From assembly GCA_047625245.1 (NCBI GenBank), contig JBLHQQ010000001.1:1-49955 (forward strand): DNA of 49,955 nucleotides, in the 5' to 3' direction. This DNA is from Candidatus Azotimanducaceae bacterium (GTDB taxonomy: Bacteria; Pseudomonadota; Gammaproteobacteria; Pseudomonadales; Azotimanducaceae). Both the position numbers and the translations under genes were made by a program. The notes beneath the pieces were generated by a model that was not told the DNA's origin, did not search any database, and saw only the letters and a list, made by a program, of their open reading frames with translations. Shown here piece after piece: positions 11,280-36,314 of the stretch (position 1 is the stretch's first letter; each line of letters opens with the position of its first letter).

Positions 11280-11570
11280 AAGCTAGTCTTTAGTTCGTCG
11301 ATGTCTAATGAAATCACAATGTTCCAGCCAGTCAAATTGATTAGAGTCCGCCGCTGGGGACTGAAACACTCTAGATGGCATCATCAGGGCTCGTCAGCGT
11401 GGATTGCGGTCGCTCTCCACGCATCAAACGAACCCACGCTTCTACGTTCAGGTTTATCATACAACCACTCACATTGTACATCACTGAACGAAGAAGCCTC
11501 GCTACAAAACTCACCGAAAACCTACTATAAACCAGGTAATCTCCACCAAGACGCAACGGAGGCACTTCTC

Positions 11571-12173
11571 TTATTTAATAAATCGCATTAAATAATTACC
11601 GACAACATGGTCGATGATCATATGTCCGTCCTCGACGGGGCCATATTCACCTTTCTCAGATGGGATATGGACGGTATGGTCCACCAAAGGGCGCAGCTTT
11701 CCGCCGTCAAATCCAGTGAGCCCAATGGTTTTAGCACCAATCTTCTTCGCATACTCGATTCCTCGTATGACGTTGCCTGAGTTGCCTGAGGCAGAAATTG
11801 CGACCACGACATCATCCTTCTTAAGCAGCACTGCCAATTGCTCATAGAAAATATTATCGTAACCGTTGTCGTTGCCAATGGCGGTAATGACGGCGAGATT
11901 GTCACATAAACTCACTGCTCTAAAAGGCTTTTCAAAAGAACGTGTACCTATGGATATATCATTGGCGAAATGTGATGCTGTCGCTGCGCTACCGCCATTA
12001 CCGATAAAGTAAACTGTTGAGCCTGCTTGCCTTGCCGCTAAAAGGACGTCAACAAACGCAGCGATTTCACTGCGATCGATTTTCGCGAGCACTTGAGTCA
12101 AGTAACCCAGGTAAGAATCAACAAAGTCTGTACTATTGGCTGTTTCCGAAAAAATTCTATCTACGTTGTTCAT
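11571..12173 (-). CDS. SIS-domain sugar-phosphate isomerase, divergent GmhA-like
   Basis: 200 aa. VYFIGNGGSAATASHFAND, AIGNDNGYDNIF and ISASGNSGN motifs. Confidence 0.8.
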   Translation of the reverse strand: MNNVDRIFSETANSTDFVDSYLGYLTQVLAKIDRSEIAAFVDVLLAARQAGSTVYFIGNGGSAATASHFANDISIGTRSFEKPFRAVSLCDNLAVITAIGNDNGYDNIFYEQLAVLLKKDDVVVAISASGNSGNVIRGIEYAKKIGAKTIGLTGFDGGKLRPLVDHTVHIPSEKGEYGPVEDGHMIIDHVVGNYLMRFIK

Positions 12174-12422: not shown

Positions 12423-13958
12423 TCATGTTCGCGTTCCCAGACCCACACTTTGTGAGATCAGCGCTACCACTCGCCCAACGTAGTGTTTTTCTGTTGAATC
12501 CAACACAACAAGATAGATGAACAGGGCATACGACAAGTATTCAACCCCACCCTCCACAACCAGTCCCAACAATGAACTGTCACTAAAAATGGGGCCTATC
12601 AAGACCGCTACAGAGTAGGGTACAACGCCTAGAATAGCCAGACATAACATTCGCGCAAGAAACGGTAACGTTGGTATCTTAAAGTAGGCCAAAAATATTG
12701 CGACCGACACAGGGACGATAACCAGTAAGCCGACACTGCGACTGCTTGCTATTGCAAACAGGCCAAACTGATCCACTGTCGCTAATATGTACAAGGTGCT
12801 AATGCTGAATATTATCCAACCAAAGGAGGAAAATAGCCCCATTCTGTAGTTAATACCCAGAAATATCGAATTTCCATGGCTGATAAATAGCGAAAGCAGG
12901 GGAACCAGAAACAGAAACTGCATCAAATAGCCGTATTGTACGTAATCTATACCTACCCAGATTTCGATAATGTTATTTGTCAGTAAAACTAAACAGGTAA
13001 TGAATGGGACAAATATGAGCAGATTGAGTTTCAGACCGACAATGAACAGCCGATCTGTGGAACCCGCCCCACGAGTTGTCGATAGCTCACTTGCAACGGG
13101 GACAACAACAGCATTACCAAAACCAATGATGGTCTTCGCCAGATTCGGAACCTTTGAGACAATATCGTAGATCCCCAGCGCTGCTGGTGTAAGAATAGTT
13201 GTCACGAAAAATTTTGGAGACTGATTATACAAGACGCCGGCAATGCCTCCCGAAAAAAGCGCACCGCAGTACCTAAGAAACCGCAATTGCGTAGAACGTT
13301 CATGGCTCAAAGTGAATGAATATTTGCCATTTTTGAAGTTAAAAACCAGTAAACTGACTAAAAACGTCACAACATGCATCAAACTCAGCGCCTTAATAAC
13401 CTCTACATAACCATAACCGAAATGCAGGAGCGCCAATACGGAAAGGAAATATAGCAAGTAGCTGGATGTGTCTATCAACTTCGATGTCATAAACTGCTGC
13501 AATCCCTCGAGGTAGCCAAGCAGCACAAGATTAAAGAACTGGAAGTATACCGCGGCGATCACAAAATCAAACGCCCCTAAATAGTCATCGAGAAATTCGA
13601 GGGGTACGTTAAACACTGTTTGCAGCAAATAGACCTTGAAGCTGTATAGAAACAGTACGATCAATGAACTTATCAAAAAATAGAACACCAGCGCGCTATT
13701 GAGTAAAACGCTAATCTTCCTATCCTCGTGGGAGGCAGTAAACTCTGCTACAAACTTCGTCATTGCAGATTGAATACCACAAATAAAAATCCCTAGGACA
13801 CCATTACGAACAGAAAAGAACACTGTCAAAACGATCAATCCGTACTTTTCAGTGCCGACCGACGCTAATAATATTGGGACAAGTAAAAACCCAAGAAAAG
13901 AAGTCAACAGACTGTTAGATAGAACAGCAAATGTGTTTTTAACCATCTTGTTTATCAT
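12423..13958 (-). CDS. wzx: oligosaccharide-unit flippase (MOP/Wzx family)
   Basis: 511 aa, about 12-14 TM segments, N-terminus KNTFAVLSNSLLTSFLGFLLVPIL typical of polysaccharide-biosynthesis MOP proteins. 4-nt overlap with the upstream gene. Confidence 0.75.
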   Translation of the reverse strand: MINKMVKNTFAVLSNSLLTSFLGFLLVPILLASVGTEKYGLIVLTVFFSVRNGVLGIFICGIQSAMTKFVAEFTASHEDRKISVLLNSALVFYFLISSLIVLFLYSFKVYLLQTVFNVPLEFLDDYLGAFDFVIAAVYFQFFNLVLLGYLEGLQQFMTSKLIDTSSYLLYFLSVLALLHFGYGYVEVIKALSLMHVVTFLVSLLVFNFKNGKYSFTLSHERSTQLRFLRYCGALFSGGIAGVLYNQSPKFFVTTILTPAALGIYDIVSKVPNLAKTIIGFGNAVVVPVASELSTTRGAGSTDRLFIVGLKLNLLIFVPFITCLVLLTNNIIEIWVGIDYVQYGYLMQFLFLVPLLSLFISHGNSIFLGINYRMGLFSSFGWIIFSISTLYILATVDQFGLFAIASSRSVGLLVIVPVSVAIFLAYFKIPTLPFLARMLCLAILGVVPYSVAVLIGPIFSDSSLLGLVVEGGVEYLSYALFIYLVVLDSTEKHYVGRVVALISQSVGLGTRT

Positions 13959-14443
13959 TCAGAGGCTAGATTTTTCAATATCTTCGCCGGCACTCCACCC
14001 GCAATGACGGAAGAAGGCAAATCCTTCGTCACGACTGAACCGGCAGTAATGATAACGTTGTCTCCGATGGTTACCCCACCAATTATCGTGACGTTGGTGG
14101 TTATCCAGCAACCCGAACCGATTTTGATGTCATGCCCATGTTCTGGAGATTCTGCTACCTCAAGGTTAAAGTTTTTACGATGATACAATTTTTTTCTCAT
14201 TCCCCCTTCAAACTCATGAATACCCGTAGCAAGAACACAATTATGGCCAAATATTGTGTCATCACCTATTGCTACATTGCCGGAAGATACATTGATGACG
14301 GTATTGAGTAGTGATGTCCGTTTCCCCAATAGAACGCGGCTTCGCTTCCCATGAATGTAGGGTCGCCGGCCGGAATATTTTCGAACAAAATCGATCAACA
14401 CTCCCATGACGACTTCAACAAATTTTTGCCAAACTTTTAGCAT
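13955..14443 (-). CDS. left-handed beta-helix (hexapeptide) acetyltransferase, probable O-acetyltransferase
   Basis: 162 aa. Hexapeptide repeats IGSGCWITTNVTIIGGVTIGDNVIITAGSVVTKDLPSSVIAGGVPAKI. Confidence 0.8.
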   Translation of the reverse strand: MLKVWQKFVEVVMGVLIDFVRKYSGRRPYIHGKRSRVLLGKRTSLLNTVINVSSGNVAIGDDTIFGHNCVLATGIHEFEGGMRKKLYHRKNFNLEVAESPEHGHDIKIGSGCWITTNVTIIGGVTIGDNVIITAGSVVTKDLPSSVIAGGVPAKILKNLASE

Positions 14444-14447
14444 TTTT

Positions 14448-15800
14448 TCACGATTTTTTAGCCATAATTTTGTCTATCCGATCAATCGCAGTATCAATTG
14501 CACGGTCTTCAAAAAACTGGCGCAGATGCTCATAATCAGCCATCTTCTTTTGCGGCTCATGAATGGTCGTGAACATTTCCGCTAATTTGTCTTCAAAATC
14601 AGCTTCATTCGTGAAATATTTGAGCCCTTGGTAATATTTTTCGAGAACCGGCCACTGCCTATGGACAAACTGCTGGAGTTCAGCAGCCACCACCATCGTC
14701 GGGATATTGTAGGCTATGGGCATTGCCAGGGACGTAGTGAACTGTGAAACAACCATGTCCACTCTGGGTAACAGTTCATAGAAGGACTCATAGGTTATGG
14801 CATAACCCGTCAAGCCTACCTGATCCAATATTTTCCTATTCTCCGGTTCACTGCTCGAAGGATGCGGTTTTATGACAATGTTCACAGAGTAGCTTAGCTT
14901 ATCGACAACGTTTTTAAGCATCCTGTAGAAGCGCACAACCTCCTCGTAATCGAGGGTAAAATGATCATAGCCTTGTGGACGGACTTTACCTTCAGGCAAG
15001 CACTTCCGGGTCATCACCAAACAAGTAATACCATCGCGATCATCTGCATCTTGACGAATATGGTTCCACCATCGACTATCAAGGCTTGGGTAACCAATCT
15101 TAATGAATTGTGTCTTGTGCTCCATGGCGACCTCCCACGGCGTCCCAAATTTAAAAGGCATCCAGTGCTCTGTATAACTCGGCATCAAATTGCTGTTGTG
15201 TTCATCGAACCTGCAAAATTCATCAGTAGCATGGATATAATGAGGTGCATGGGGCAGAAGGATGACGGGCTTTCGCTCTTTCTCAAAATACCTGTAGAGC
15301 TCATCACGACCATAACAATCTGTGACGGTTCTGTTATCAAATAGAATAATGTCGGGCGCCAGCGAGGGTAGAATTCGCTTGGCCCGGACCAACAATGCAG
15401 ATATGCGTAACTCTACCGGTTTCATGTACCGAACCAGGACCGATTTGAGCACCTTACCAAAATTTCTAAACTTATCACGCCTCAGTTCAACCAGGCTTAA
15501 CTTGTCAGAGTAGGATCGCTCGAAGAAGCGCAGGATGAGGGCTTTGAAAACGGCTGGAACGCCAACAATAAACGAACTGTAGTCGTACTGCTGGATGTCA
15601 TTCTCACAGCAAAACTCTTCCAGGAAAATTGAATCCCTTAGAATTTGTTTCTTGTTAAGTGTCGTATACAGTATAGAGATTTTAGCCGTCGGATATTTCT
15701 GTCGGATACCCCATAACACTGGGAGAGAATAGTCCAGAGTACTCGTATTCTTCATTACAATTTGCAGAACGTGCATTGGCTTGGCGCTCGTTAACGTCAT
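14448..15800 (-). CDS. uncharacterised GT-B-like protein with xHP motif (candidate ulosonic-acid or phospho-alditol transferase)
   Basis: 450 aa. VIKPHPSSS followed by VDMVVSQFTTSLAMPIAYNIPT, a pattern seen in sialyl-, Kdo- and TagF-type transferases. No other recognisable motif. Confidence 0.45.
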   Translation of the reverse strand: MTLTSAKPMHVLQIVMKNTSTLDYSLPVLWGIRQKYPTAKISILYTTLNKKQILRDSIFLEEFCCENDIQQYDYSSFIVGVPAVFKALILRFFERSYSDKLSLVELRRDKFRNFGKVLKSVLVRYMKPVELRISALLVRAKRILPSLAPDIILFDNRTVTDCYGRDELYRYFEKERKPVILLPHAPHYIHATDEFCRFDEHNSNLMPSYTEHWMPFKFGTPWEVAMEHKTQFIKIGYPSLDSRWWNHIRQDADDRDGITCLVMTRKCLPEGKVRPQGYDHFTLDYEEVVRFYRMLKNVVDKLSYSVNIVIKPHPSSSEPENRKILDQVGLTGYAITYESFYELLPRVDMVVSQFTTSLAMPIAYNIPTMVVAAELQQFVHRQWPVLEKYYQGLKYFTNEADFEDKLAEMFTTIHEPQKKMADYEHLRQFFEDRAIDTAIDRIDKIMAKKS

Positions 15801-16789
15801 AGCCCATCAATTACTTGATTCAGTATCTGCAATGTATCTCTATTTATTCCTACTCTACGCTCGCAAGAAGCTGAATCCCTTGGTACTGCAAGCACCTTTA
15901 CCCCAATATAGTCTAGTTGACGATAGTCACATTCGAACAAGCAATTTCGCATTGCTTCGGCAGTCATCAAGGAATCTGGTTCAAAATCAACGATACCAGG
16001 CTCACGGGCGACCGGCAGGTGTAAGTCTGTCCATTGACCATAGGCCGACTCAACGGCGCTTGTGCCCGAAAAAATCAGACCTCGCAGCACGCCTTTTTCA
16101 AAAGCCTGCCTGACATGTTGAGCTGCACCATCTGGATGGCGATGCTCAATCACGGACCTCGCCCAATTTATAGTCATACCAACCTCAATAGCAGATGCGG
16201 CAAAGAGCTTTTCAATGGTCTGCAGCTCTTCTTCGATATTCAGAAAGCCTTTAACAGGTTTACTTTTAGTCCTGCCACTGTCGCAATGCTCAATGGCTAA
16301 CTTCGCGCCATCCCACTGGTAATTCGACATTGTCTCCAAAGACCGATACAGCGCATCAGCAGAACTGGAAGCAGTCGGGTGAGACAGCGCCGGGGAGGTC
16401 GCCACAGCAACGCTGACCACGGACCTCCGACCAAAATAATCATTAAGGGTACGAACCGCTGCTGCTGCTTTACTATAAAAAGTCAGAGCCGCTTGCCTAC
16501 CCTCCTCATTATTTGAAGCGAGGCCGAAATGGGGGTTCAACACGAGACCATCCATATTGCCTGGCAAGCACGTAATCGCAAACTCCCAGTGGTCCGCAAG
16601 TAAACTGAGAAAAAGTTTACTATCATGAGGATGAACTCCGTCACCCCAAAAAGGCAGCTCTAACCCACGAATAGTCCCTAATTCCTCGGTCATTGCCCTC
16701 ATATAGACAGTTTCAGCCTCGGCGTCCCAAACCTGAAGTGTCGGGGACGTTGCGTAAGCTCCAACCATGTACCTACTAAAATCAGCCAT
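15797..16789 (-). CDS. hypothetical protein, possibly a TIM-barrel enzyme
   Basis: 330-aa ORF coupled at both ends (ATGA overlap downstream, 8-nt overlap upstream). I recognise no motif with confidence. Confidence 0.5.
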   Translation of the reverse strand: MADFSRYMVGAYATSPTLQVWDAEAETVYMRAMTEELGTIRGLELPFWGDGVHPHDSKLFLSLLADHWEFAITCLPGNMDGLVLNPHFGLASNNEEGRQAALTFYSKAAAAVRTLNDYFGRRSVVSVAVATSPALSHPTASSSADALYRSLETMSNYQWDGAKLAIEHCDSGRTKSKPVKGFLNIEEELQTIEKLFAASAIEVGMTINWARSVIEHRHPDGAAQHVRQAFEKGVLRGLIFSGTSAVESAYGQWTDLHLPVAREPGIVDFEPDSLMTAEAMRNCLFECDYRQLDYIGVKVLAVPRDSASCERRVGINRDTLQILNQVIDGL

Positions 16790-17480
16790 TTAGATACTGA
16801 CCTCCATTAAGATCAAGTCCGCAGCCGGTCATATAGGTATTATCACGGCTCACGAGGAATGCTATGGCTTTAGCTACTTCGAGGGGTTCTACAATCCGTT
16901 GCAGGGGTATTTGCTGCTCTACTGTGCGCAACAGTTCAGGATCAACATTAGCGATCAACATCGGCGTAGCTGTCATACTCGGAAACACGGAGTTAATTAA
17001 GACACCGTCTACCGCAAATTCAATCGCCAGTTGTTTAACAACGCCACTCAGTGCAGATTTGCTGGTGGTATACTCAAACCCTGAAAATTGACTAAAGCTT
17101 CTGGCTGCTAGCGAATTCACCACAACTACCCGTCCCTTTGAGGCTTTCAATTGTTTGTAGGCGTGTTTCAGACACAAGAGCAAACCAGTAACATTGGTCG
17201 CCATGATGGCATTGAGGACCGCAGGATCAAAATCCTCTATAGATTGCTTTTTTGCAGTAATCCCCGCCGCATAAACAATACCTTCAAGAGGAGTATCCGG
17301 GTCAGAAAAAAACGCCTCAATACTCGCTTCGTCGGTAACATCAACCAACCGACTCGACCCACCAACACTCATTTCCTGCAGTTGGCGTCGGCCGCCTACA
17401 ATGGTATCGTATCCCAGTTCGCACAGATACTTTGCGGTCTCAAGACCAATACCAGATGTCCCCCCTATAACGGCTATCAC
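16782..17480 (-). CDS. classical SDR oxidoreductase
   Basis: 232 aa. IAVIGGTSGIGLETAKYL and YTTSKSAL motifs. Confidence 0.85.
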   Translation of the reverse strand: MIAVIGGTSGIGLETAKYLCELGYDTIVGGRRQLQEMSVGGSSRLVDVTDEASIEAFFSDPDTPLEGIVYAAGITAKKQSIEDFDPAVLNAIMATNVTGLLLCLKHAYKQLKASKGRVVVVNSLAARSFSQFSGFEYTTSKSALSGVVKQLAIEFAVDGVLINSVFPSMTATPMLIANVDPELLRTVEQQIPLQRIVEPLEVAKAIAFLVSRDNTYMTGCGLDLNGGQYLNG

Positions 17481-17482
17481 TC

Positions 17483-18622
17483 TCAGGCGTCACTGTCGCG
17501 AGGATAAACATGAGCCACATCTGAACGGCTTACGGCCATTCGAATTGCAGGCTTATTGCCACTGGCGGTTATTTTATGCTTACGCCCCTTCTGCATAAAT
17601 ACAATCTCACCTTTCTTGACAATTTTTACTTCGCCTTCAATTTCCCACTCCCATTCACCGTCGACGATGTACCACCATTCATTCCAATCTGGATGATAGT
17701 GGCGCCGGTTACCTTCCCCGGGCAATTGCGAAATGACGGTCATAGAATTACTGTCGGTGTCTATCACACGCTTGCTCCATGACTTGGAGGAATCCATCGA
17801 TTCAATTAGATCTTTGACCACAACAATCTCTTTATTGACGTCGTAGAGGTCATTAAACTCAACACCGTCCTTCTTAAGTATACTTTCGACATGAGCCTCA
17901 GAGTGATCTGAACTTGCTTCATCATAATATTCTATAGCTGCCGCGGTGTTCTGTTTTCTTGCGCTGATTATTGCCTGGGCTAGTTGGAAATCCTCCTCCC
18001 TGTCGATATCAATAGTTGACAGTCCTCTCAACTCAAAGTAGCCAGCCTTGCCGTCACCACCATGATATGCGGCGCCAAATTTTTCCATATTTTCCTGAAA
18101 ACTAGGGTAAGTCCAGCCCATCAGTGCAGTAGCATAAGCCATCACCGGTTCCATCGTCTGCGACGGCGGATTCACCTTACACATCTCAAAATTTATTGGC
18201 TCACCTTTATAAACGCTGGCAATCTGGTTATGTTCAACCGACACAAGTGTATCCAATTTCTGGTCTATCATCGCTTTCACAAACTCACGAATTTCAGAAA
18301 CTGATAGCAACGGCGAAGTAGGTAAAATTTGAATCAGAATATCGCCTTCAACATTCTTCATAAAGTCGAGGGAAAACTGGTCGTTTGTCGCCTGGTCGCT
18401 TGAAAAAACTTCTGGGCGCTTATAGAAGCTGATGCCCTTTTCCTCAGCGATGAGGCGAAAAACATCTGCTTCAGAGTTAAGATAAATTTCATCAAAAGCA
18501 TTCGAAGCCATCACACTTTCTATGATGTAAGAAATCAAAGGCTGACCGTCAATCAACCGGAGGTTCTTCTTAATTATTCGTTTACTGCCCAGGCGGGCTG
18601 GGATCATCGCAATTATTTTCAT
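17483..18622 (-). CDS. NeuA/KdsB-family cytidylyltransferase fused to a C-terminal cupin domain
   Basis: 379 aa. N-terminus MKIIAMIPARLGSKRIIKKNL..ILPTSPL (CTP_transf_3 type). C-terminus GNRRHYHPDWNEWWYIVDGEWEWEIEG..GRKHKI (cupin HxH..E..H pattern). Confidence 0.8.
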   Translation of the reverse strand: MKIIAMIPARLGSKRIIKKNLRLIDGQPLISYIIESVMASNAFDEIYLNSEADVFRLIAEEKGISFYKRPEVFSSDQATNDQFSLDFMKNVEGDILIQILPTSPLLSVSEIREFVKAMIDQKLDTLVSVEHNQIASVYKGEPINFEMCKVNPPSQTMEPVMAYATALMGWTYPSFQENMEKFGAAYHGGDGKAGYFELRGLSTIDIDREEDFQLAQAIISARKQNTAAAIEYYDEASSDHSEAHVESILKKDGVEFNDLYDVNKEIVVVKDLIESMDSSKSWSKRVIDTDSNSMTVISQLPGEGNRRHYHPDWNEWWYIVDGEWEWEIEGEVKIVKKGEIVFMQKGRKHKITASGNKPAIRMAVSRSDVAHVYPRDSDA

Positions 18623-19545
18623 TTTAAGCCTTTCTCGTATTCAATTAGTGATTCGATGGCACTTCGACCCATTGCCAATACTGACTCGATAGAATTGCCA
18701 CCGATATGCGGCGTAGTGATTAAATTTTCGATAGCAATCAGTTCTGCATTCTCGGGGGGTTCTTCATAATAAACATCAATTGCGGCGCCTGCAATCTGCT
18801 GGCTTTGCAACGCGTGCTTTAACGCTTCAAGGTCAATCAACTCTCCTCTAGCAGTATTCAATACAAGCGCAGAAGGCTTCATCATTCCAAATGCCTGTGC
18901 GTCGATAAGATGATCCGTCGAATCGTTCAAGGGTGTGTGGACAGTTATAATATCGGCCTCGCGATAAAGCACCTCTTTCTCAACATGTATAACCCCAACT
19001 GATGCATAATAGTCTTGCTGGTCAAGAATATCGTTCACTAGGATTTTGCAGTGGAATGGCTCAAGTAAACGGATGAGTTCTTTACCGATATGTCCGACGC
19101 CAATGATACCAATGACTTTTTCACTTAAATTTGCTCCACCACTCTTGTTCCAATTTGCCGCTTTCAACTGGTTTGATGTCAGATACAGATTACGAATCAA
19201 CATAAGCATAAAGCCAATCGCCATTTCAGCTACAGACAGCTTATTAACACCGGCTTGCCAGGCCACTTTCACGCCTTTCTCTTGACAGTAGGCAATATCA
19301 ACATTATTCAGACCGACACCGTACTTGGCCACGATTTTCACACCCGGACAGGCATCTATAATATCTTTATTAAAATCTTCTAAGCCTATTATCACAGCAT
19401 CTGCGTCAGCTATGAACTCAATCAGTGCCGAGCCGTTGTAACGCTCACCTGATTCGTTTATTCGCACGTCATCAAAGTATTCACCCAGTTCAGCGATCAG
19501 GGTATCATTGATGGAAAATGCCTTATTGGGAACCGCTATTTTCAC
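18619..19545 (-). CDS. D-isomer-specific 2-hydroxyacid dehydrogenase (PGDH-like)
   Basis: 308 aa. IGIIGVGHIGKEL, LNTARGELID and TPHIGG motifs. Confidence 0.85.
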   Translation of the reverse strand: MKIAVPNKAFSINDTLIAELGEYFDDVRINESGERYNGSALIEFIADADAVIIGLEDFNKDIIDACPGVKIVAKYGVGLNNVDIAYCQEKGVKVAWQAGVNKLSVAEMAIGFMLMLIRNLYLTSNQLKAANWNKSGGANLSEKVIGIIGVGHIGKELIRLLEPFHCKILVNDILDQQDYYASVGVIHVEKEVLYREADIITVHTPLNDSTDHLIDAQAFGMMKPSALVLNTARGELIDLEALKHALQSQQIAGAAIDVYYEEPPENAELIAIENLITTPHIGGNSIESVLAMGRSAIESLIEYEKGLK

Positions 19546-19572
19546 TTAATATCTCCAGAAGGTTTTCCCAAT

Positions 19573-20631
19573 TCAAGCATTTTGGTAATAGCCTGATTGG
19601 TCGTATATCGCCTCAATAAGTTCCATCACATTCATTGCGTCCGAACTGCGACCGTGAAGAACAGCTTTGTTACCATTAATCGCGTCAGCAAACTCATTGA
19701 TTTCAAGTTGCCATGAATCATCTTGCTCAAAGTTCATCACAATCTCATCAGGCTTGCCCATTGCATAGGTAATGTGTTCTTTTTCGCTTTTACCAATAAT
19801 CAACCGTTCCGGCGCATAACTTCTGGTTTCCGATAGAATACCGTCAAGATTCAGATAGCCATGTTCAAACATGATTTCAAGTAAGAACTTGTGTCGCCAC
19901 TGGGTAGCTGAGGAATGAATGGTACTGATCAGACCATCTTTTGTTTTCATCATGACGAAAGCATTGTCTTCCGCTTCAACATCCCAGTGAGCATTTGTTA
20001 GATATGCGTGAACGTCGGAGAATTTTTGACCGGAAAAATACAGCATAAGATCCAACATATGGATACCTTGATCCATCAATATTCCGCCACCGGAATATTG
20101 GCGATAGTTTCGCCACTCCTTGTGATAATCAATACTGCCGGCCTTACCATAGACACCGCGCATCCAGAGAATGTTACCCATCTCTCCGCTATCCATGATT
20201 TTCTTCGCCTCAATTACAGAATAGTGAAACCGATGGTTGAAGCCATATTTGAGGATCAAGCCGGTACTGTCTTCAATACGCCTAACAACCTCCAGCTCAG
20301 CTACGGTTTTTGCCGGGGGCTTTTCGCAAAAGACATGAAAACCTGCCTGAAGGCCTTTTGCTGCGTACTCAGAAGCTACACTATTAAATGCACAGATAAC
20401 CAACGCATCGATATCCTGCTTCAGCAAGTCATCGAAACTGGCACACCCAACCACGTCAGCTAACCCATCAAGCACACTCTCGTTAATATCAAATACGGCT
20501 ACCAATTCCATATCAGCATGGGCCAGAACTGCTTTCGCCCTGATTTTACCCATTTTTCCAAATCCTGCTATCCCAACCCTGATCAACGCTTGTGTCTCCC
20601 TTAATTTATTATTAGCTACCACGTTGCTCAA
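19573..20631 (-). CDS. Gfo/Idh/MocA-family oxidoreductase
   Basis: 352 aa. IRVGIAGFGKMGKIRA Rossmann start and CEKPPA motif. Confidence 0.85.
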   Translation of the reverse strand: MSNVVANNKLRETQALIRVGIAGFGKMGKIRAKAVLAHADMELVAVFDINESVLDGLADVVGCASFDDLLKQDIDALVICAFNSVASEYAAKGLQAGFHVFCEKPPAKTVAELEVVRRIEDSTGLILKYGFNHRFHYSVIEAKKIMDSGEMGNILWMRGVYGKAGSIDYHKEWRNYRQYSGGGILMDQGIHMLDLMLYFSGQKFSDVHAYLTNAHWDVEAEDNAFVMMKTKDGLISTIHSSATQWRHKFLLEIMFEHGYLNLDGILSETRSYAPERLIIGKSEKEHITYAMGKPDEIVMNFEQDDSWQLEINEFADAINGNKAVLHGRSSDAMNVMELIEAIYDQSGYYQNA

Positions 20632-21994
20632 TCATGGCGATAATGGTTGATGAAAACGTATCGATCTCAGGCAGGCTGTTAACATACAATTCGCCTGGCA
20701 AAGTCCTGTCCCAGACACGTTGAAAATATCTGGCCCGATCCGCCTCACTCGTCTCTTCAAGACTGAGCGCCTGTTTAAGCCCTGTCGCGAGTCCTGATAT
20801 ATGCTCAACTCGCACGACAAGTGGACTGTTTTTATAGAATGCGTCCCCCATCACCACTACGGGTTTACCTAACAAAGCTGCCTCCGCGCCTGATTTTGAA
20901 TTTATTGAAACGATGCTCGCCGCTGCACCTAGAACCTTATAGTTATTAACACCAGGATTAATGATTACCAAATTATCGTAACTTCGCACCATACTTTTTA
21001 CGCGATCAACATCAACAGCTCCTATCTGGGCTGGATGCTCCTTTATCGCGATCTTATAACCACTAGGAACCACTCTCACCAGATACTCGATCAACGCGAG
21101 TTGATCCAAGTATTCGGGAGACCTGAGAGTCAGCGCAGCATCACCAGGCACGTGCAATGGAAAATAGACGAAGGGACCTATCTGCTCTAACTCTGAATAC
21201 ATTGAACGCATGCGCACAGAATTGATCAACATCGAGAGATGCTTCATTGCGTATACGTAGATAAAACCAAACTCCTGATGTTTTCCCAAAACATGTTTAT
21301 CTATGATTTTCGCAACAAAACGGCGAAGATTTTTCAAATTCACAATTTTCTTTAGTGCTGCGTTATATTGATGTTTGTCTTTTTTTGGAATTACTATTGA
21401 CTGATTCGCAATAGCCTTACCAATATAGGACTCAACTTCCGGAGACACGACGGCGGCATATACGTCCCCGGCGTCAAGCGAGCCGTAGGTATTTACGAGG
21501 CCAAAAAGCATACCGCTAAAAAATGAGGGTTCCAGAAAATAATTGTCAATGTTATGTTTTTGAGCTACGAAATAGGCTGCAATGACGGACAAGAAACCAC
21601 CTAATTCCTGCACAAAATCAATTTTTTGCTCAGGATTTTCTGTAACTAGAATTTTCGTAACATTATCTATTGAGCGCAGGTAGGCTGCCAGACGCGAATT
21701 CAGCGCCACCGAATCGGCTATCGAAAATGTAATGCGCTCATGAGAGGTCCAAAGATTCGAGTCTTCGAGATCAAACTCTGCGAAAACATCTTCGGGCACC
21801 AGCTCACCTTCACTTAATAATCTCTTGCTCAGGCTCGGAATATCATAATTTCTTTGCCCTTTTGAACAAAGCATTTCGGTGCTTCTGGTATCAAAAGACA
21901 GGAAAACAACATCATGCCCCCTGGCTTTCAGCCCGATACCTACATTGATCCAGAATTCTGTCTGGTATTCCGCGAGCGTGGTAATAACAATCAT
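20612..21994 (-). CDS. KpsS/KpsC-like (Capsule_synth-type) putative ulosonic-acid transferase
   Basis: 460 aa. IAIKEHPAQ followed by IVSINSKSGAEAALLGKPVVVMGDAFY, which resembles the C-terminal signature of capsule-synthesis (beta-Kdo transferase-like) proteins. Confidence 0.55.
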   Translation of the reverse strand: MIVITTLAEYQTEFWINVGIGLKARGHDVVFLSFDTRSTEMLCSKGQRNYDIPSLSKRLLSEGELVPEDVFAEFDLEDSNLWTSHERITFSIADSVALNSRLAAYLRSIDNVTKILVTENPEQKIDFVQELGGFLSVIAAYFVAQKHNIDNYFLEPSFFSGMLFGLVNTYGSLDAGDVYAAVVSPEVESYIGKAIANQSIVIPKKDKHQYNAALKKIVNLKNLRRFVAKIIDKHVLGKHQEFGFIYVYAMKHLSMLINSVRMRSMYSELEQIGPFVYFPLHVPGDAALTLRSPEYLDQLALIEYLVRVVPSGYKIAIKEHPAQIGAVDVDRVKSMVRSYDNLVIINPGVNNYKVLGAAASIVSINSKSGAEAALLGKPVVVMGDAFYKNSPLVVRVEHISGLATGLKQALSLEETSEADRARYFQRVWDRTLPGELYVNSLPEIDTFSSTIIAMIEQRGS

Positions 21995-22065
21995 TTGGAA
22001 CCTCTAAACCGAGTATAGAACTACACGGCAGGTATATACATTAACGGTAATTAGTCGATGTAAAT

Positions 22066-23451
22066 TCAGCGTCGAATTCGAGCTCGAATGGACGTCAAAG
22101 ACATAAACGGGAGTAGCCCATCGACATGCGCAACATTCAGTTCAGCAGCATCCACACCACTTAACTGGAATAACTCGCGAACAGAGTGAACGTCAATGAA
22201 TTTATCCTTGCGTTTGGCTGAAAGTTTTGTCCTTGCAACGTTGACAAAACTTGACCCAAATATCATACAAACCGCCTTGTAGACCGTTTGGTGCACTGAA
22301 TCACGACCGGCAAAAAGGCCACTTCTAGCCACACTCTTAGTTTCCTCAACTTCCGCGCGTTGTTTTATGACTGAGGCGACCCTTTCACCCGCATCACCAT
22401 CACACAGGTAGAAAAAACCTTCTACATAGCTAGCAACCACACCTTCTTCAACAAGTTGGGCATATTTGACCCCTGGATGGTTAATGGCGTCTATCAAATC
22501 ATCTCGACCCAGAGCCCGGTAACTCACTTTAGAAGGAATCGGAGTATGTTTTGCCATCAAGGCATCGTTCAGGTACTCAATGGATATCGGCGGCACTTTC
22601 ATTATCAACGAATCCACTGCGGTTCCACAATTGAGGTGGACGACACACGCAGCCTGGGAAATAGCATCAAATACATCCCCATCGCCATCAACAATAACAT
22701 TTTCAAATTTTTCAAACGCTGCAGTATAGGGCTTAAGGTCTTCGAATGGGTGTGGCCTTACCACCACCTTTCTTGTCGGCATCGACTCGGCAATAAACCT
22801 TACCTCATCAATAAACTTGGGAAATATCGCCAACAAGTGTTCATACAATTCATCAACATAGCCCCCATCCCAGCCGACAGACTTAAACGCACTCTTCTCG
22901 CTTTCAACACTGGATCCAAATTTAGGGTTGATGGCCGAAAAATTTGCATTAACAAGAATGTGGTTTTCATAGCGAGGCTTTAGCATACCCACCCATTTTC
23001 GGTCACATTGGTCGTAGCGTGGGCAGCCTGTAAGAAACAAATCAGATTTATCTATCTGACTGTATGCGGAAAATGCTTCAAAAGTCTTAGCGCCCCAAAA
23101 GAAGTAACCGGCAACCAAGGCCCCCAAGCCCGTTTCTCCCAAGTGTCTTGCCCAATTCTCAGGTGAATCTATGCCGTCCGTAGAGAGTATCCCACCCTCA
23201 GTATCAAGCACATAAACTGGAACACCAGCAGCTTGGCACCTTTCAAGAAAAGCTCGATTATTCAAACGCACATAATTAACAACCAGTAAATCGACCTTTC
23301 CAAGGAAAGTGTCAACATGCTGAAAATACATGGGTATGAAGTGAACCTCATGCCCCGCTTTGATCAGGTGGGTGGCAAGTATCACTAACCCTTTCAAATC
23401 CCTTTTGGGGTTATCAACTATCAAACCAATTCTTTTCGCCATCGACACCAT
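22066..23451 (-). CDS. GT-B-like putative ulosonic-acid or surface-carbohydrate transferase
   Basis: 461 aa. VVVRPHPFED followed by VVHLNCGTAVDSLIMKVPPI. The start may be the second ATG (MAKRIGLIV). Confidence 0.5.
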   Translation of the reverse strand: MVSMAKRIGLIVDNPKRDLKGLVILATHLIKAGHEVHFIPMYFQHVDTFLGKVDLLVVNYVRLNNRAFLERCQAAGVPVYVLDTEGGILSTDGIDSPENWARHLGETGLGALVAGYFFWGAKTFEAFSAYSQIDKSDLFLTGCPRYDQCDRKWVGMLKPRYENHILVNANFSAINPKFGSSVESEKSAFKSVGWDGGYVDELYEHLLAIFPKFIDEVRFIAESMPTRKVVVRPHPFEDLKPYTAAFEKFENVIVDGDGDVFDAISQAACVVHLNCGTAVDSLIMKVPPISIEYLNDALMAKHTPIPSKVSYRALGRDDLIDAINHPGVKYAQLVEEGVVASYVEGFFYLCDGDAGERVASVIKQRAEVEETKSVARSGLFAGRDSVHQTVYKAVCMIFGSSFVNVARTKLSAKRKDKFIDVHSVRELFQLSGVDAAELNVAHVDGLLPFMSLTSIRARIRR

Positions 23452-23600: not shown

Positions 23601-24713
23601 TTAACTAGCTTTTAAGGGTTGCTTCAATCGCCATTCCCCATCAACCATCTCCCAGATTTTGTGGTTCCGGAATTTCTCCACGGTATCCCAAAATTCCTCC
23701 TCAGTGACATGGTGAAAGCGGAGAAAGTCCTGGAAGTACTCAGCAGGAAACTCATCACTGAGCTTGCTGACAATTTCTACGGCATCTTTTCTACTAAGTC
23801 GGCCATTCCATATGTCATAGCAACATTGGTCTGTGGAACGCCAGAAGCCGAACTTCAGATACTTGAACCAGATGTTAATCTCACACAACTTCTCATCAAT
23901 ATTGTCGTAGTCAAGAAAATTACCCGCAAGTGGTCCACTTTTCCGACCCGTAAAACCTCTCTGGCTCACAATCTCATAGTTTTTACGCCCATACCATCGA
24001 AGGTAGTGACCTAGATAGATGCTGTTTATACCCGACGCTTCCAATTTCTCGTAAGCTGGGTACCTGTAAAACAGCGTATCTCTTTCGGAGATATCATCGT
24101 CCAACCAATCACTAACGGTCTTTTCCTTGATCAGGTCGTTTTTATCGATCGCCAAGGCGCTCGGCTTACTTTCCTGATTCTGTATACCACCAAATTCAAA
24201 AGCTATATCTTCCCCCCAGACGACCAAAGGCACTTCATAAATCAGGGCGGTATTTATCACGCTGGAAAACATCGCGCAGTGCTCCGCCCAATTTGGCTCT
24301 CCCTGCCGTATGAAACACTTCTTCCTGATAGCCCTGAACACACTGGGCTTAATCGTGATTTTCATATGATCGACATTCAAATCTTTGATCATATTATTAA
24401 GATTTTCGATACCTTCTGTGGTTGGAAGGTGCGCTGTAAGCGTCACGCAAAGTACTTTCAAACCATACTTTTCCGCCAGAATCATTGCCTGGAACCAACT
24501 ATCCTTACCACCGCTAACAGGCACTATGCAGTCATAAAATGGGTGATTAGCCGCCTTCACATCAGCCACAATCTCATCGAGCTGCTTGCCTCTTTCCACC
24601 CAATCAATTTTATCTTTCAGTTCTCGAGCACGACAGGCATTACACATCCCGCGGCTGTCGAGAACAACACCCGGTTTTGTATTTGGCATCACACACGTTG
24701 CACAATATTCCAT
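23601..24713 (-). CDS. N-acetyl sugar amidotransferase (WbuX/PseA/PtmG family, PP-loop ATPase)
   Basis: 370 aa. N-terminal Cys4 CATC..CNAC and intact PP-loop VPVSGGKDS. Confidence 0.85.
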   Translation of the reverse strand: MEYCATCVMPNTKPGVVLDSRGMCNACRARELKDKIDWVERGKQLDEIVADVKAANHPFYDCIVPVSGGKDSWFQAMILAEKYGLKVLCVTLTAHLPTTEGIENLNNMIKDLNVDHMKITIKPSVFRAIRKKCFIRQGEPNWAEHCAMFSSVINTALIYEVPLVVWGEDIAFEFGGIQNQESKPSALAIDKNDLIKEKTVSDWLDDDISERDTLFYRYPAYEKLEASGINSIYLGHYLRWYGRKNYEIVSQRGFTGRKSGPLAGNFLDYDNIDEKLCEINIWFKYLKFGFWRSTDQCCYDIWNGRLSRKDAVEIVSKLSDEFPAEYFQDFLRFHHVTEEEFWDTVEKFRNHKIWEMVDGEWRLKQPLKAS

Positions 24714-24718
24714 TTGTG

Positions 24719-26011
24719 TTAGCCCTCTACCGCTTTATAGTTAACTTCGTCCATATAGGCACGTCCCAGCAAAATATAACCTTCTTCTCGCTCTTCTACC
24801 TCTTTCAGATCAGTGAGCGCGTATTCATTGGCATTGGTACTTTCAAGTTGCACCTCCTCACTGCCAGCGTCATCAATATGCTCCATAACTGAGTCTCTAA
24901 GCATCCAGTCGCCATCTTTTTGCAGCCAGATTTGCGGGTCACGAAATTTATCGACCGTTGCCAAAAAATCCTCTTGGGACATGCCAATCCATTCAAGCAA
25001 AAGTTGGAGGTTTTCAGGAACAACTGATTGATATTGTTCTACTAGCCTGGCCCCTTCGGCACGGGTTATTCGCTTCAATCGTATGTCACGAGAGGCGTGG
25101 TCTGTTACTTTTCCGTAACCATATTTTAGGAATTTCACATAATCGTGGACGCTGGCGTTGTTCCAACAAGCAATAGACTCGAAAGTGTTGTACGTACGTT
25201 CCTGAGTCAAAGTTTCGTAAGAGAACTTTTCGATCATCTTTTCAGTCTGGATTTTAGAATCCCAGAAAATGTAGTTGCCCAGATACAGTCCTCGAACTCG
25301 AGATTTTTCTAGTTGTTCATCTGAAGGGTAGGTAAATGCCTGTAAATCCTTTGATGATATAGCAGCGCTCATGCCTATTAGAGATGCAGCATCAACACCA
25401 CGCATTGCATGTTCCTTCCTGACCTTCTTGGTCATCTCTACCTGATCATGATGAGAAAACATTCCTACCTGGTCAAGCCAACCGTTAACTCCCCATATAA
25501 TCAGTGGAATGTCCAGCTTCGTAGCCACCTGAACTGGGAAAGTGTTAATACCTGCAATCACATGCCAATAGATATCACCAAATTCTCGTAAAGTAACTCG
25601 GGTGATTTCCTTAACAGTGTCAGGTCCCACGGTCGACATCATATGATCACAGTCAAGTTCTGTGATTAGGCGGGCGAGATTGCGAACGCCGACTTTAGTG
25701 TTGAACTGGGAGTTGTAAGTTACGAGTAACGGGTTCATCCCAAATTTGTTTTTTATGGTGTCGACCACAAAAAAATCATCACCAATACCCGACACGGGAA
25801 TGATACAGTCATATGAAGTACCAGGCCTATGTTTATACTGGGCCAGAATATTTTCGAATTCTTGCTCTTTCTTGCTCCAGTCTATTTCATATTTTTCTTC
25901 GTGCACCAGACATCCACTACAAACACCCCTTGAGTCAAAGGTAATGTTTAATGGATGGTTTGCTGGATATAAACAGCGCGTACAATATCTCATAACGTTT
26001 CCATTACCCAT
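24719..26011 (-). CDS. N-acetyl sugar amidotransferase paralog with degenerate PP-loop
   Basis: 430 aa. Same Cys4 N-terminus (CTRC..CSGC) and colinear with the neighbouring paralog, but the PP-loop reads IPVSGIGDD. The start may be the second ATG (25993). Confidence 0.75.
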   Translation of the reverse strand: MGNGNVMRYCTRCLYPANHPLNITFDSRGVCSGCLVHEEKYEIDWSKKEQEFENILAQYKHRPGTSYDCIIPVSGIGDDFFVVDTIKNKFGMNPLLVTYNSQFNTKVGVRNLARLITELDCDHMMSTVGPDTVKEITRVTLREFGDIYWHVIAGINTFPVQVATKLDIPLIIWGVNGWLDQVGMFSHHDQVEMTKKVRKEHAMRGVDAASLIGMSAAISSKDLQAFTYPSDEQLEKSRVRGLYLGNYIFWDSKIQTEKMIEKFSYETLTQERTYNTFESIACWNNASVHDYVKFLKYGYGKVTDHASRDIRLKRITRAEGARLVEQYQSVVPENLQLLLEWIGMSQEDFLATVDKFRDPQIWLQKDGDWMLRDSVMEHIDDAGSEEVQLESTNANEYALTDLKEVEEREEGYILLGRAYMDEVNYKAVEG

Positions 26012-26016
26012 TCCAA

Positions 26017-26835
26017 TTAAAATGGTCGACCCATCAGGTCGAACTCAAAATCCTTATATTTGACATTCGAACTCAATCGAACATCTACTCCCGAACTTAC
26101 CAAATGCGCTTTAGCCGCAATAGTACTGTGTTCGGAATGTTGGAAAATATTAGCGGCTGAGACTGCTTCACACCCACCCTCAATTACTCCGGGTGCTAAG
26201 TGACGGAAGGAGCCCACTCCTCCGCAAGCAATAACAGGTATTTTCAACCGCGAACTGATGGAATGCAGTAGCTCAAGATCGTATCCCCTTCGGCTTCCGT
26301 CCCTATCCACAGAGTTAACAAATATCTCGCCAGCCCCCAAACTTTCCATCTCGACAGCAAGTGCTGCGGGACTTTGCTGCAACGCAGACTTGGCCAAGTA
26401 ATCATAGACCCGGTAGCCATCTGGCGTTTCTATCACATCTATCGAGACTGTAATGCACTGGCTCCCATAGGCTGCCGACGCCTCGGCGATAAAATTGGGA
26501 TCTCGTCTCGCTATTGAGTTGACACAAACTTTGTCCGCTCCCACTTTCAGTAGATCACGAATGTGTTGCTGCGTGGATATGCCACCGCCAATAGTCAATG
26601 GTACAAAACATTCAGTTGCCGCCCAACTAACCAGATCCAGGTTAAAAGACCGGCCTTCTCGGCTGGCATCGATGTCTATAACAATTATTTCGTCAACATC
26701 CCAATTGACAAAGAATTCAATCGCAGTCTTTATGTCCCCGATGGGGAGATACCTATTAAAGCCAAAACTCTGGACGACAAGTTCTCCCTTGGTGACGATA
26801 CAAGGTACGAGCCTTTTCTTAAGCATCCAATCCAT
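26017..26835 (-). CDS. hisF: HisF-like cyclase subunit (WbuZ/HisF2-type acetamidino-modification protein)
   Basis: 272 aa. KRLVPCI, DEIIVIDIDAS, PLTIGGGI and GADKVCVNS motifs of the IGP-synthase cyclase fold. Glycan-locus context. Confidence 0.9.
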   Translation of the reverse strand: MDWMLKKRLVPCIVTKGELVVQSFGFNRYLPIGDIKTAIEFFVNWDVDEIIVIDIDASREGRSFNLDLVSWAATECFVPLTIGGGISTQQHIRDLLKVGADKVCVNSIARRDPNFIAEASAAYGSQCITVSIDVIETPDGYRVYDYLAKSALQQSPAALAVEMESLGAGEIFVNSVDRDGSRRGYDLELLHSISSRLKIPVIACGGVGSFRHLAPGVIEGGCEAVSAANIFQHSEHSTIAAKAHLVSSGVDVRLSSNVKYKDFEFDLMGRPF

Positions 26836-27463
26836 CTCCTACCATATCCAAAAAATTCCTCAGCACGATCATGCCATTCTGTTGGCTTTTTTCCGGATGA
26901 CACTGCATTCCATAGATATTGCCTGATTGCACAGAAGCTGTAACCTCAATGCCATGGTCCACCGTCGCTGTAATATATCTCTCATCACAAACTGCGTGAT
27001 AACTGTGCACAAAGTAAAAATTTTTATCCTCGCCCAGGTTGTCCAATAACCTGCTCGGCACTCTAAATTGCAAGTTATTCCAACCCACGTGTGGGACACG
27101 ATAAGGTGATTTCACATCAATATATCTAACCGGACCAGGAATCCAGCCTAAACCTTTAGTCACCTGCCCCTCTTCAGAGCTATCAAAAAACAATTGCATA
27201 CCCAGACAAATACCCAGTATCGGCTTTTTTTCGTCAAAGGCTTGTTTCGACAAAATTGGAACGAGACCTCGCGACTCGAGATTATACATTGCATCACGGA
27301 ACGCACCGACACCTGGAATGACGATACAATCGGATCTTTCAATATCCGCCGGATCATTAGTTACCCTCACATCATAGTTACCGATATGTTTTATTGCATT
27401 TTCTATAGAACGAAGATTACCCATTCCATAGTCGACAATCGCTATCACAAAACCATCTTTCAT
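26819..27463 (-). CDS. hisH: HisH-like glutamine amidotransferase subunit (WbuY-type)
   Basis: 214 aa. IAIVDYGMGNLRS, GICLGMQ (catalytic Cys) and CHPEKS (His/Glu). Confidence 0.9.
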   Translation of the reverse strand: MKDGFVIAIVDYGMGNLRSIENAIKHIGNYDVRVTNDPADIERSDCIVIPGVGAFRDAMYNLESRGLVPILSKQAFDEKKPILGICLGMQLFFDSSEEGQVTKGLGWIPGPVRYIDVKSPYRVPHVGWNNLQFRVPSRLLDNLGEDKNFYFVHSYHAVCDERYITATVDHGIEVTASVQSGNIYGMQCHPEKSQQNGMIVLRNFLDMVGDGLDA

Positions 27464-33011: not shown

Positions 33012-33012
33012 A

Positions 33013-36301: not shown

Positions 36302-36314
36302 AGTGTCATCTCAA

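Follow-up and report, generated by a model that had tools for sequence, protein, structure and literature searches.

A predicted aldolase-free pathway to a CMP-activated seven-carbon ulosonic acid around a cytidylyltransferase-cupin fusion in an Azotimanducaceae surface-polysaccharide locus

What acid is activated by a cytidylyltransferase that has no synthase beside it? The question is raised by a stretch of 49,955 nucleotides (hereafter the window) from Candidatus Azotimanducaceae bacterium (assembly GCA_047625245.1, contig JBLHQQ010000001.1, positions 1 to 49,955 of the forward strand). All long open reading frames (ORFs) listed for the window are on the minus strand and make up one very large surface-polysaccharide locus. 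Domain searches across the window confirmed a count made in a first-pass annotation of the same DNA, namely three cytidylyltransferases of Pfam family PF02348 (17483-18622, 28269-28997 and 38649-39335) but only two NeuB-family synthases (31935-33041 and 39940-41898), all encoded on the minus strand. Both NeuB genes are already paired with a cytidylyltransferase of their own. The third cytidylyltransferase (17483-18622) lies in the interval 14448-23451, which we argue is, on balance, probably the larger part of a self-contained pathway that uses no aldolase and leads to a seven-carbon 2-ulosonic acid activated by cytidine monophosphate (CMP). In our best reading, the pathway is completed by three genes outside that interval, at 11571-12173, 9170-9880 and 8101-9192.

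The product of 17483-18622 has a cytidylyltransferase domain at residues 1-225 (PF02348, E = 2.4e-19) and, as the first-pass annotation had noticed, a C-terminal cupin. The cupin occupies residues 282-373, is of the three-histidine, one-glutamate type and matches Cupin_2 over residues 300-360 (E = 1.1e-13). The PF02348 match (CTP_transf_3, residues 4-151) scores 70.4 bits, above Pfam's gathering score of 22.6. When 16 homologues drawn from different phyla and lineages are aligned, P8-A9-R10, G12-S13, K19-N20, Q98, P101-T102-S103-P104 and D205/D207 are invariant, as are the motifs PARxGSK, QxLPTSP and DIDxxxD to which they belong; by analogy with NeuA and KdsB, we take these to bind nucleotide and magnesium. 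The best NCBIfam match of the domain is PseF (TIGR03584, E = 1.8e-20), at 73.5 bits against a cut-off of 205.7, and kdsB (TIGR00466) reaches 20.3 bits against 155.2. The third cytidylyltransferase is a member of PF02348 and not an equivalog of PseF or KdsB, and it is predicted to form a CMP-ulosonate. In the cupin, the metal ligands His308, His310, Glu315 and His349 are invariant in all 16 homologues, and mean pairwise identity is higher in the cupin domain (76%) than in the cytidylyltransferase domain (63%). Homologues of the fusion number 1835 cluster representatives at E <= 1e-5, chiefly from marine metagenomes. The AF2 model of the fusion protein shows two domains, both well folded, with a disordered stretch (residues 226-238) linking them; with a pTM of 0.58, the full-length model is uninformative on whether the two domains cooperate.

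The fusion gene stands in a run of genes, 12423-21994, that is translationally coupled, since the junctions within it measure -20 to +27 nt. Domain matches and short junctions both agree with the earlier description of a coupled run containing a Gfo/Idh/MocA oxidoreductase, a D-2-hydroxyacid dehydrogenase (2Hacid_dh), a short-chain dehydrogenase/reductase (SDR) and a 330-residue protein. The same description held that the run has no cognate synthase. That statement stands for NeuB-type enzymes; it fails for the pathway as a whole, of which genes are found outside the interval, at 8101-9192, 9170-9880 and 11571-12173, beyond an acetyltransferase gene and downstream of a flippase gene. Because these genes are contiguous with the fusion gene in other genomes, the interval 14448-23451 is too narrow, and its partner genes sit a few kilobases further on. 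In our reading, the role of a synthase would be filled by non-aldolase enzymes, three of them encoded outside the interval and overlooked earlier. The earlier interpretation of the run is partly supported.

To compare the window with other genomes, we used the contig contexts of homologues together with 67 loci from species-representative genomes, mapped by tblastn with every window protein; the tallies below refer to 70 non-redundant loci, denoted by L numbers where they have to be told apart. A block recurs in 28 of them that consists of a GmhA-like SIS isomerase, an SDR (SDRa), an AroB-like enzyme, a 2Hacid_dh or a second Gfo protein, a Gfo oxidoreductase, the cytidylyltransferase and cupin (fused or split), another SDR (SDRb) and sometimes a DUF4862 protein. 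These 28 AroB-type loci come from more than 15 phyla. Carriers include Planctomycetota, Marinimicrobia, SAR324, Scalindua, Nitrospirota, Nitrospina, Bacteroidota, Verrucomicrobiota, Omnitrophota and Acidobacteriota, as well as Alteromonas arenosi, Paraglaciecola, Sulfurimonas, Campylobacter lari and a Thermoplasmatales archaeon. The window itself looks like a mosaic: the block from the Gfo to the Wzx gene (12423-21994) is 49-78% identical to L001, a metagenome-assembled genome (MAG) of Planctomycetota, while the SIS, SDRa and AroB-like genes (8101-12173) show 36-42% identity to L001 and 54-66% to L003, L009 and L023. Unlike in the window, the SDRa and AroB-like genes of L001 lie between the Gfo and 2Hacid_dh genes.

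Several of these loci link the module to particular surface structures. In L002 it is coupled directly to flagellin and a Maf transferase without NeuB, and in C. lari (L072; GCA_025772205.1, JAKMRV010000001.1, 308500-329501) the whole module lies in a kps-type capsule locus. The C. lari locus also carries a PF04199 'cyclase', genes resembling the sulfate-activation genes CysD, CysN and adenylylsulfate kinase, a transporter and a sulfotransferase; the sugar may accordingly be sulfated there, in a cultivable food-borne species. The locus of the uncultured Thermoplasmatales archaeon (L012, a MAG) has the full bacterial-type module, with Gfo, 2Hacid_dh, SDRa, AroB-like and cytidylyltransferase-cupin genes, the last at 54% identity, which implies either transfer between domains of life or contamination of the bin.

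A simpler variant was found in 22 Rhodobacteraceae loci (L043 and 21 others, L042-L065), where an orthologous cytidylyltransferase, about 39% identical, has no cupin. The gene order is Gfo, methyltransferase-like, SIS, phosphatase of the inositol-monophosphatase (IMPase) family, cytidylyltransferase, 2Hacid_dh, Maf-type (MptE-like) transferases and SMP30/gluconolactonase. These clusters are of the flagellin-glycosylation type, also contain a Maf/GT2 fusion, and have no NeuB. Their enzymes can be assigned one by one to the steps of a linear route that leads from a ketose phosphate to a CMP-ulosonate: the SIS protein would convert the ketose phosphate into an aldose phosphate, the Gfo protein would oxidise this to a lactone, and the lactonase would open the lactone to an aldonate phosphate; the 2Hacid_dh would then give a 2-keto-aldonate phosphate, from which the phosphatase would release the 2-ulosonic acid for attachment of CMP by the cytidylyltransferase. 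The cluster predicts that modification with a heptulosonic acid made without NeuB would be found in Ruegeria, Phaeobacter, Leisingera and Tritonibacter.

The simpler variant differs from the window in how phosphate would be removed. An AroB-like gene is present in 28 of the 70 loci and an IMPase gene in another 28, none has both, and 14, most of them on truncated contigs, have neither, in a count that takes loci without regard to phylogeny. This mutual exclusion suggests that the AroB-like enzyme and the phosphatase are two ways of removing the same phosphate. Phosphatase-type loci that carry the cupin fusion are found in Omnitrophota, Verrucomicrobiota, Opitutales and an archaeon, and the phosphatase type thus extends beyond Rhodobacteraceae.

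These comparisons also bear on the cupin. In C. lari the cytidylyltransferase and the cupin are encoded by separate adjacent genes; the fusion is thus a union of two enzymes from a single pathway. Searched against the PDB, the cupin-domain profile finds only generic three-histidine, one-glutamate manganese/iron cupins, with KdgF as a weak match at about 1e-3. A KdgF-like ring-opening role connected with the AroB-like step was considered and given up as the main idea, for L022 and three loci of the phosphatase type (L013, L033 and L069) have the cupin as well. The role of the cupin therefore seems to lie in activation, or in some feature that ulosonates share, and not in the AroB-like step. In L022 (uncultured Nitrospiraceae, 10001-11122) a cytidylyltransferase-cupin protein, 49% identical to that of the window, is encoded in a cluster with two NeuB-like genes, a 2-epimerase and PtmE/PtmF/PtmA-like genes. 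Given this locus, the cupin may serve CMP-ulosonate activation more generally.

How could the window enzymes make a 2-ulosonic acid? The first step would be catalysed by the GmhA-like SIS isomerase (11571-12173, minus strand; SIS_2, E = 9.5e-22), which is proposed to convert sedoheptulose-7-phosphate into an aldoheptose-7-phosphate. Its closest relative of solved structure is the phosphoheptose isomerase 5ltz (8.4e-27), and in many loci its gene directly adjoins the module. These relatives point to sedoheptulose-7-phosphate and a C7 acid as the putative starting compound and product of the pathway. The Gfo/Idh/MocA oxidoreductase (19573-20631, minus strand; Pfam) would next oxidise C1 of the heptose-7-phosphate to a lactone, which would open to heptonate-7-phosphate. 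Inositol dehydrogenases, glucose-fructose oxidoreductase, aldose-aldose oxidoreductase and glycoside 3-dehydrogenases are among the relatives with solved structures that come nearest to it, and it is 40% identical to the Gfo protein of the Rhodobacteraceae variant, which is itself linked to the gluconolactonase. It is this gluconolactonase that points specifically to oxidation of an aldose at C1. The third enzyme, the SerA-like D-2-hydroxyacid dehydrogenase (18619-19545, minus strand; PF02826/PF00389), would oxidise C2 to give hept-2-ulosonate-7-phosphate, the 3-hydroxy analogue of 3-deoxy-D-arabino-heptulosonate 7-phosphate (DAHP). Its position beside the fusion gene is conserved across loci, and its best solved relatives are 3-phosphoglycerate dehydrogenases (1wwk, 4.8e-50), which oxidise a phosphorylated 2-hydroxy acid.

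The AroB-like enzyme (8101-9192, minus strand) leads to the same intermediate from the other side. Over its full length it matches TIGR04425, a 'hypothetical equivalog' that NCBIfam names 'AroB-related putative sugar phosphate phospholyase (cyclizing)', at 458.3 bits against a cut-off of 400; its score for aroB itself (TIGR01357) is 261.7 bits, below the cut-off of 305. The nearest solved structures are those of true 3-dehydroquinate synthase (DHQS; 3clh, 1.7e-44), and EEVS (5e-28) and DOIS (3e-24) are farther away. Compared with the DHQS of Helicobacter pylori, Vibrio cholerae and Staphylococcus aureus, the enzyme keeps the signature GGGxxxD, DxxxGSK, KN, ExxK, KxxxxxDE, RxxxNxGHxxGHA, HG and DKK, in which we assume, from the Aspergillus nidulans DHQS numbering, that the positions binding the phosphate and the carboxylate of DAHP are retained. 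As the DHQS signature is kept and the nearest structures are genuine DHQS, the enzyme probably acts on a DAHP-type 2-ulosonate phosphate. The SIS, Gfo and 2Hacid_dh enzymes would together yield hept-2-ulosonate 7-phosphate, which is just the class of substrate expected for a DHQS-like enzyme. Two independent lines, the enzyme set on the one hand and the likeness to DHQS on the other, thus converge on this compound as the likely intermediate. The AroB-like family has thousands of members, mostly annotated automatically as '3-dehydroquinate synthase', and no Rosetta-stone fusions were found among the 120 best homologues.

In place of the phosphatase of the simpler variant, the AroB-like enzyme would remove the phosphate by NAD-dependent beta-elimination, and the resulting carbonyl would be reduced by SDRa (9170-9880, minus strand; Pfam). 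The genes of this putative ketoreductase and the AroB-like enzyme overlap by 23 nt in the window, and they adjoin in 27 of the 28 loci. The intermediate could then be isomerised, epimerised or reduced by the cupin, SDRb and the DUF4862 protein. SDRb (16782-17480, minus strand; adh_short), a predicted ketoreductase, is encoded directly downstream of the fusion gene in most loci. The DUF4862 protein (15797-16789, minus strand; PF16154, E = 2.3e-84) is the 330-residue protein that the first-pass annotation could not place; by domain and structure searches it is predicted to be a TIM barrel like that of xylose isomerase, and is a candidate sugar isomerase or ketose-3-type epimerase. Its AF2 model (pLDDT 95.2) matches in Foldseek 3ktc (a putative sugar isomerase), L-rhamnose isomerase, UlaE (L-xylulose-5-phosphate 3-epimerase), D-tagatose 3-epimerase and xylose isomerase, with a probability of 1.0 and a TM score of about 0.6 to rhamnose isomerase, UlaE and tagatose 3-epimerase. 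The fold comparison alone is informative here: Pfam gives no PF01261 match for the window protein, and a PDB sequence search found no match even at E = 1. Residues E44, H53, E167-H168-C169-D170, E215, D255 and H257 are invariant. Judging from the predicted fold, 3-epimerisation next to the 2-keto group of an ulosonate that is not 3-deoxy would be a natural role for this protein, which is accessory, being present in nine of the 28 AroB-type loci. CMP would finally be attached by the cytidylyltransferase domain, and one of the transferases flanking the run would add the sugar to the polysaccharide, with O-acetylation and flipping by Wzx to follow.

Three such candidate transferases flank the run, as described earlier; each has a strand followed by a His-Pro motif, and two of the three match a known family. 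The gene at 22066-23451 (minus strand) encodes a candidate CMP-ulosonic-acid transferase, a surface carbohydrate biosynthesis protein of the TIGR04396, or BFO_1060, type (277 bits against a cut-off of 125) with the motif VVVRPHP; L001 has a 31%-identical homologue in the vicinity of the module. A KpsS/KpsC-like Capsule_synth candidate (20612-21994, minus strand; PF05159, E = 2.4e-14) has the motif IAIKEHP and a 39%-identical homologue in L001. The third, a protein of 450 residues (14448-15800, minus strand) with no Pfam or NCBIfam match, has the motif IVIKPHP and a 57%-identical homologue at the same position in L001, and may be the transferase for the product of the module. In pairwise BLASTP, the flanking transferase candidates and a 426-residue protein encoded at 9999-11279 have no significant similarity to one another, and the transferase candidates share the short His-Pro motif only.

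Does the module depend on NeuB after all? The first-pass annotation offered two readings of the run, that it remodels a CMP-ulosonic acid made by one of the NeuB modules, through oxidation, cupin-type epimerisation and reduction, or that it activates a different acidic substrate. Remodelling draws on the presence of two NeuB modules in the same window, on four loci (L010, L012, L016 and L031) with NeuB nearby and no second cytidylyltransferase detected within the flanks, and on the fusion gene inside the NeuB cluster of L022. Against it, NeuB is absent within 10 kb in 17 of the 28 AroB-type loci, including L002 and L072, and in all 22 Rhodobacteraceae loci, and in 7 of the 11 AroB-type loci that do have a nearby NeuB a separate cytidylyltransferase stands beside the NeuB genes. 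The module owns a cytidylyltransferase, sugar-phosphate enzymes such as the GmhA-like, AroB-like and IMPase proteins would have no part in remodelling a CMP-sugar, and the NeuB genes of the window are, as said above, already provided for. A general dependence on NeuB, for which a co-occurrence analysis of the cytidylyltransferase-cupin fusion across genomes had been proposed, is not seen; no NeuB in the window is linked to the third cytidylyltransferase, and the run does not qualify as a NeuB-dependent nonulosonic acid module. We regard remodelling of a Leg-type (legionaminic acid) or other NeuB product by a run without its own synthase as improbable. The second of the two readings comes closer, in that the module looks self-contained; the acid that we propose is the C7 ulosonic acid made by the module itself. 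Still less credence, and in our judgement very little, is due to the idea that the fusion is a redundant synthetase for CMP-legionaminic or CMP-pseudaminic acid with an inert C-terminal domain, its neighbouring dehydrogenases belonging to unrelated steps. PseF is indeed the best NCBIfam match of the cytidylyltransferase domain, but the score falls far under the cut-off, and an inert domain is contradicted by a cupin that is better conserved than its partner, with invariant metal ligands. The neighbourhood is conserved across phyla, and the cupin is kept as a separate gene in C. lari.

A harder question is what the AroB-like step would make. We prefer a 7-deoxy-2,6-diulosonate as its product; reduction by SDRa would then yield a 7-deoxy-heptulosonic acid with its ring oxygen retained. 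What AroB-type enzymes make by default is, chemically, a carbocycle, here a quinate-like one, and the known chemistry of the DHQS reaction favours spontaneous carbocyclisation of its enol-pyranose intermediate. The same set of genes could then be read differently: the AroB-like enzyme would truly cyclise hept-2-ulosonate-7-phosphate to a hydroxylated carbocycle like 3-dehydroquinate, SDRa would reduce it to a polyhydroxy-cyclohexane-carboxylate resembling quinate, and the cytidylyltransferase would cytidylylate its tertiary C1 hydroxyl to give a CMP-carbasugar that is attached to a glycan or otherwise used. Besides that chemistry, the closeness of the enzyme to genuine DHQS, with the full catalytic, phosphate-binding and carboxylate-binding signature, speaks for cyclisation, as do the word 'cyclizing' in the NCBIfam name, the resemblance of the Gfo protein to inositol dehydrogenases, and the predicted fold of the DUF4862 protein, which is that of the IolE/IolI-type TIM barrels that tailor cyclitols. 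What decides us against it is that the linked transferases (Maf in L002, Capsule_synth and TIGR04396) use CMP-ulosonates through chemistry of the oxocarbenium type, which needs the ring oxygen and is impossible for a carbocycle. Moreover, the cytidylyltransferase is orthologous to that of the phosphatase variant, in which a carbocycle cannot form, and we know of no glycan containing a quinate-like carbocyclic residue. We therefore favour the 7-deoxy product as on balance probable and hold the carbocycle to be a serious but rather unlikely alternative. The broader claim, that a carbocyclic 'pseudo-ulosonic acid' activated with CMP is produced by C. lari, some archaea and many marine bacteria for capsules, O-antigens or flagellin, seems to us more doubtful still. 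A 7-deoxy sugar would be analogous to legionaminic and pseudaminic acids, with their terminal deoxy group, and to the logic of RmlB/C/D.

We would like to set out together the points that tell against the pathway we propose. All of its substrates are deduced from family membership and gene context, and spontaneous carbocyclisation, mentioned above, speaks against the 7-deoxy product. The SIS protein scores 110 bits with TIGR00441, below the GmhA equivalog cut-off of 209, and while it keeps both active-site histidines it has E68 replaced by D and Q175 by E with respect to the Burkholderia pseudomallei enzyme, so that a length of seven carbons is presumptive. The Gfo family also includes dehydrogenases of cyclitols or of sugars at C3, and the 2Hacid_dh of the window is only 26% identical to the Rhodobacteraceae one. 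No lactonase is conserved among the AroB-type loci; DUF386 and, in C. lari, the PF04199 'cyclase' are accessories of sporadic occurrence. In an Acidobacteriota-type branch the 2Hacid_dh is missing, and a second Gfo-like gene is present together with a sulfotransferase-like gene and DUF386. The L022 cluster showed no SIS, AroB-like or IMPase gene, and the disregard of phylogeny in the count of AroB-like and IMPase genes lessens the weight of their exclusion.

Comparison with known systems helps to place the pathway. Closest in logic is the biosynthesis of CMP-Kdo by the isomerase KdsD, the aldolase KdsA, the phosphatase KdsC and the cytidylyltransferase KdsB, which likewise has an SIS isomerase acting on a ketose phosphate, a 2-ulosonate phosphate, removal of phosphate, CMP attachment by a PF02348 enzyme and transfer by Capsule_synth/KpsS-like enzymes. 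Unlike that pathway, the module has no phosphoenolpyruvate (PEP) aldolase, and its keto-acid is proposed to arise from two dehydrogenations of a heptose phosphate, at C1 and then at C2. Its sugar would have seven carbons and not be 3-deoxy, and in the window an AroB-like phospholyase and an SDR stand in for the phosphatase. The nonulosonic acid pathways (NeuB/LegI/PseI with NeuA/LegF/PseF) share the cytidylyltransferase family and the types of locus, and the module often stands beside Leg-type modules. It differs from them in that NeuB is mostly not linked, the cytidylyltransferase scores far below the PseF cut-off, and a metal cupin is fused or adjacent to it. With AroB and the sugar-phosphate cyclases EEVS, DDGS and DOIS, the AroB-like enzyme shares its fold, its catalytic, metal, phosphate and carboxylate motifs and a proposed DAHP-like substrate, but it belongs to TIGR04425, scores below the aroB cut-off, and lies in glycan loci next to an SDR, alternating with a phosphatase.

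The two dehydrogenations have a parallel in pyridoxal phosphate biosynthesis, where Epd and PdxB convert erythrose-4-phosphate via 4-phosphoerythronate into a 2-keto acid. There, too, an aldose phosphate becomes an aldonate phosphate, from which a D-2-hydroxyacid dehydrogenase makes the phosphorylated 2-keto acid; in the module the first dehydrogenase is of another family, the chain has another length and the product is bound for a glycan. The arrangement of the fusion itself resembles ManC/AlgA/XanB (GDP-mannose pyrophosphorylase/phosphomannose isomerase), in which an N-terminal nucleotidyltransferase is likewise followed by a C-terminal metal cupin of the same pathway, and the fusion has weak matches to PF01050 (E = 0.0036) and NF012004. 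Its nucleotidyltransferase is of PF02348 and not PF00483, however, and its cupin is a distant relative only. The pathway would be CMP-ulosonate biosynthesis by a new route, and categorically new in the minority case that its product is carbocyclic. That the run is not a characterised system, as had been remarked before, agrees with full-text literature searches, which returned nothing on the arrangement and no paper on DUF4862, TIGR04425 or this combination of genes. Database curators have noticed two of the families, TIGR04425 and DUF4862.

To our knowledge, a PEP aldolase takes part in every characterised route to a CMP-2-ulosonic acid, whether this is Kdo or sialic, legionaminic or pseudaminic acid. 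If our proposal is true, there would be a second, oxidative way to CMP-ulosonic acids, with an enzyme fold of the shikimate pathway recruited into glycan biosynthesis. The module is not rare, given the number of fusion representatives, the thousands of AroB-like proteins, the breadth of phyla and its reach into a food-borne Campylobacter species. It would follow that surveys of genomes by their NeuB homologues overlook an entire class of surface sugars resembling sialic acids, and that many genes annotated as 'aroB' within glycan loci are probably misannotated. Among cultivable strains, C. lari, Alteromonas arenosi, Ruegeria and Phaeobacter are candidates for the discovery of a new sugar, which is possibly 7-deoxy or carbocyclic. 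If the carbocycle were true, glycans would have a building block of a new class, and a new chemistry of pseudo-glycosyl transfer would be implied.

Within the coupled run, at its end towards the AroB-like gene, the window encodes a Wzx-type flippase (12423-13958, minus strand; PF01943, E = 2.3e-14) and a hexapeptide-repeat O-acetyltransferase (13955-14443, minus strand; PF00132) with a 75%-identical homologue at the same position in L001. The 426-residue protein encoded at 9999-11279, between the SIS and SDRa genes, matches no family; its hydrophobic stretches give it the look of a polytopic membrane protein, and it may be a Wzy polymerase.

Elsewhere in the window, a second unusual ulosonate module lies at 35459-43920 (minus strand), with an NTP-transferase, a CBS-GHMP kinase, a second GmhA-like SIS protein, a cytidylyltransferase and three SDRs. 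Its gene at 39940-41898 encodes a protein of 652 residues that combines NeuB with a TIM barrel like that of xylose isomerase, and the same module has an AP_endonuc_2 TIM barrel as a free protein. As genes of the heptose-activation type adjoin NeuB here, a non-standard NeuB substrate is suggested. At 23601-27463 there are two tandem paralogues of WbuX-type N-acetyl-sugar amidotransferases (370 and 430 residues) with HisH/HisF-like genes, and a formyltransferase (31009-31938) lies inside the Leg-type module; these genes point to acetamidino and/or N-formyl decoration of a legionaminic-type sugar. About 1.6 kb (43921-45537) between the first biosynthetic gene and a Wzz-like gene (45538-46566) contains no ORF of at least 100 residues, and the last 3.4 kb (46567-49955), with a GC content of about 0.5, has only short overlapping ORFs. 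Both stretches may be regulatory, or may be the remains of decayed genes; the whole window, when scanned against Rfam, gave no matches. The Bac_transf ORF at 1782-2726 and the Polysacc_synt_2 ORF at 2467-3654 overlap by 260 nt as listed. The Pfam match of the former, the downstream gene, starts at residue 91, and its true start is probably later than the first in-frame GTG.

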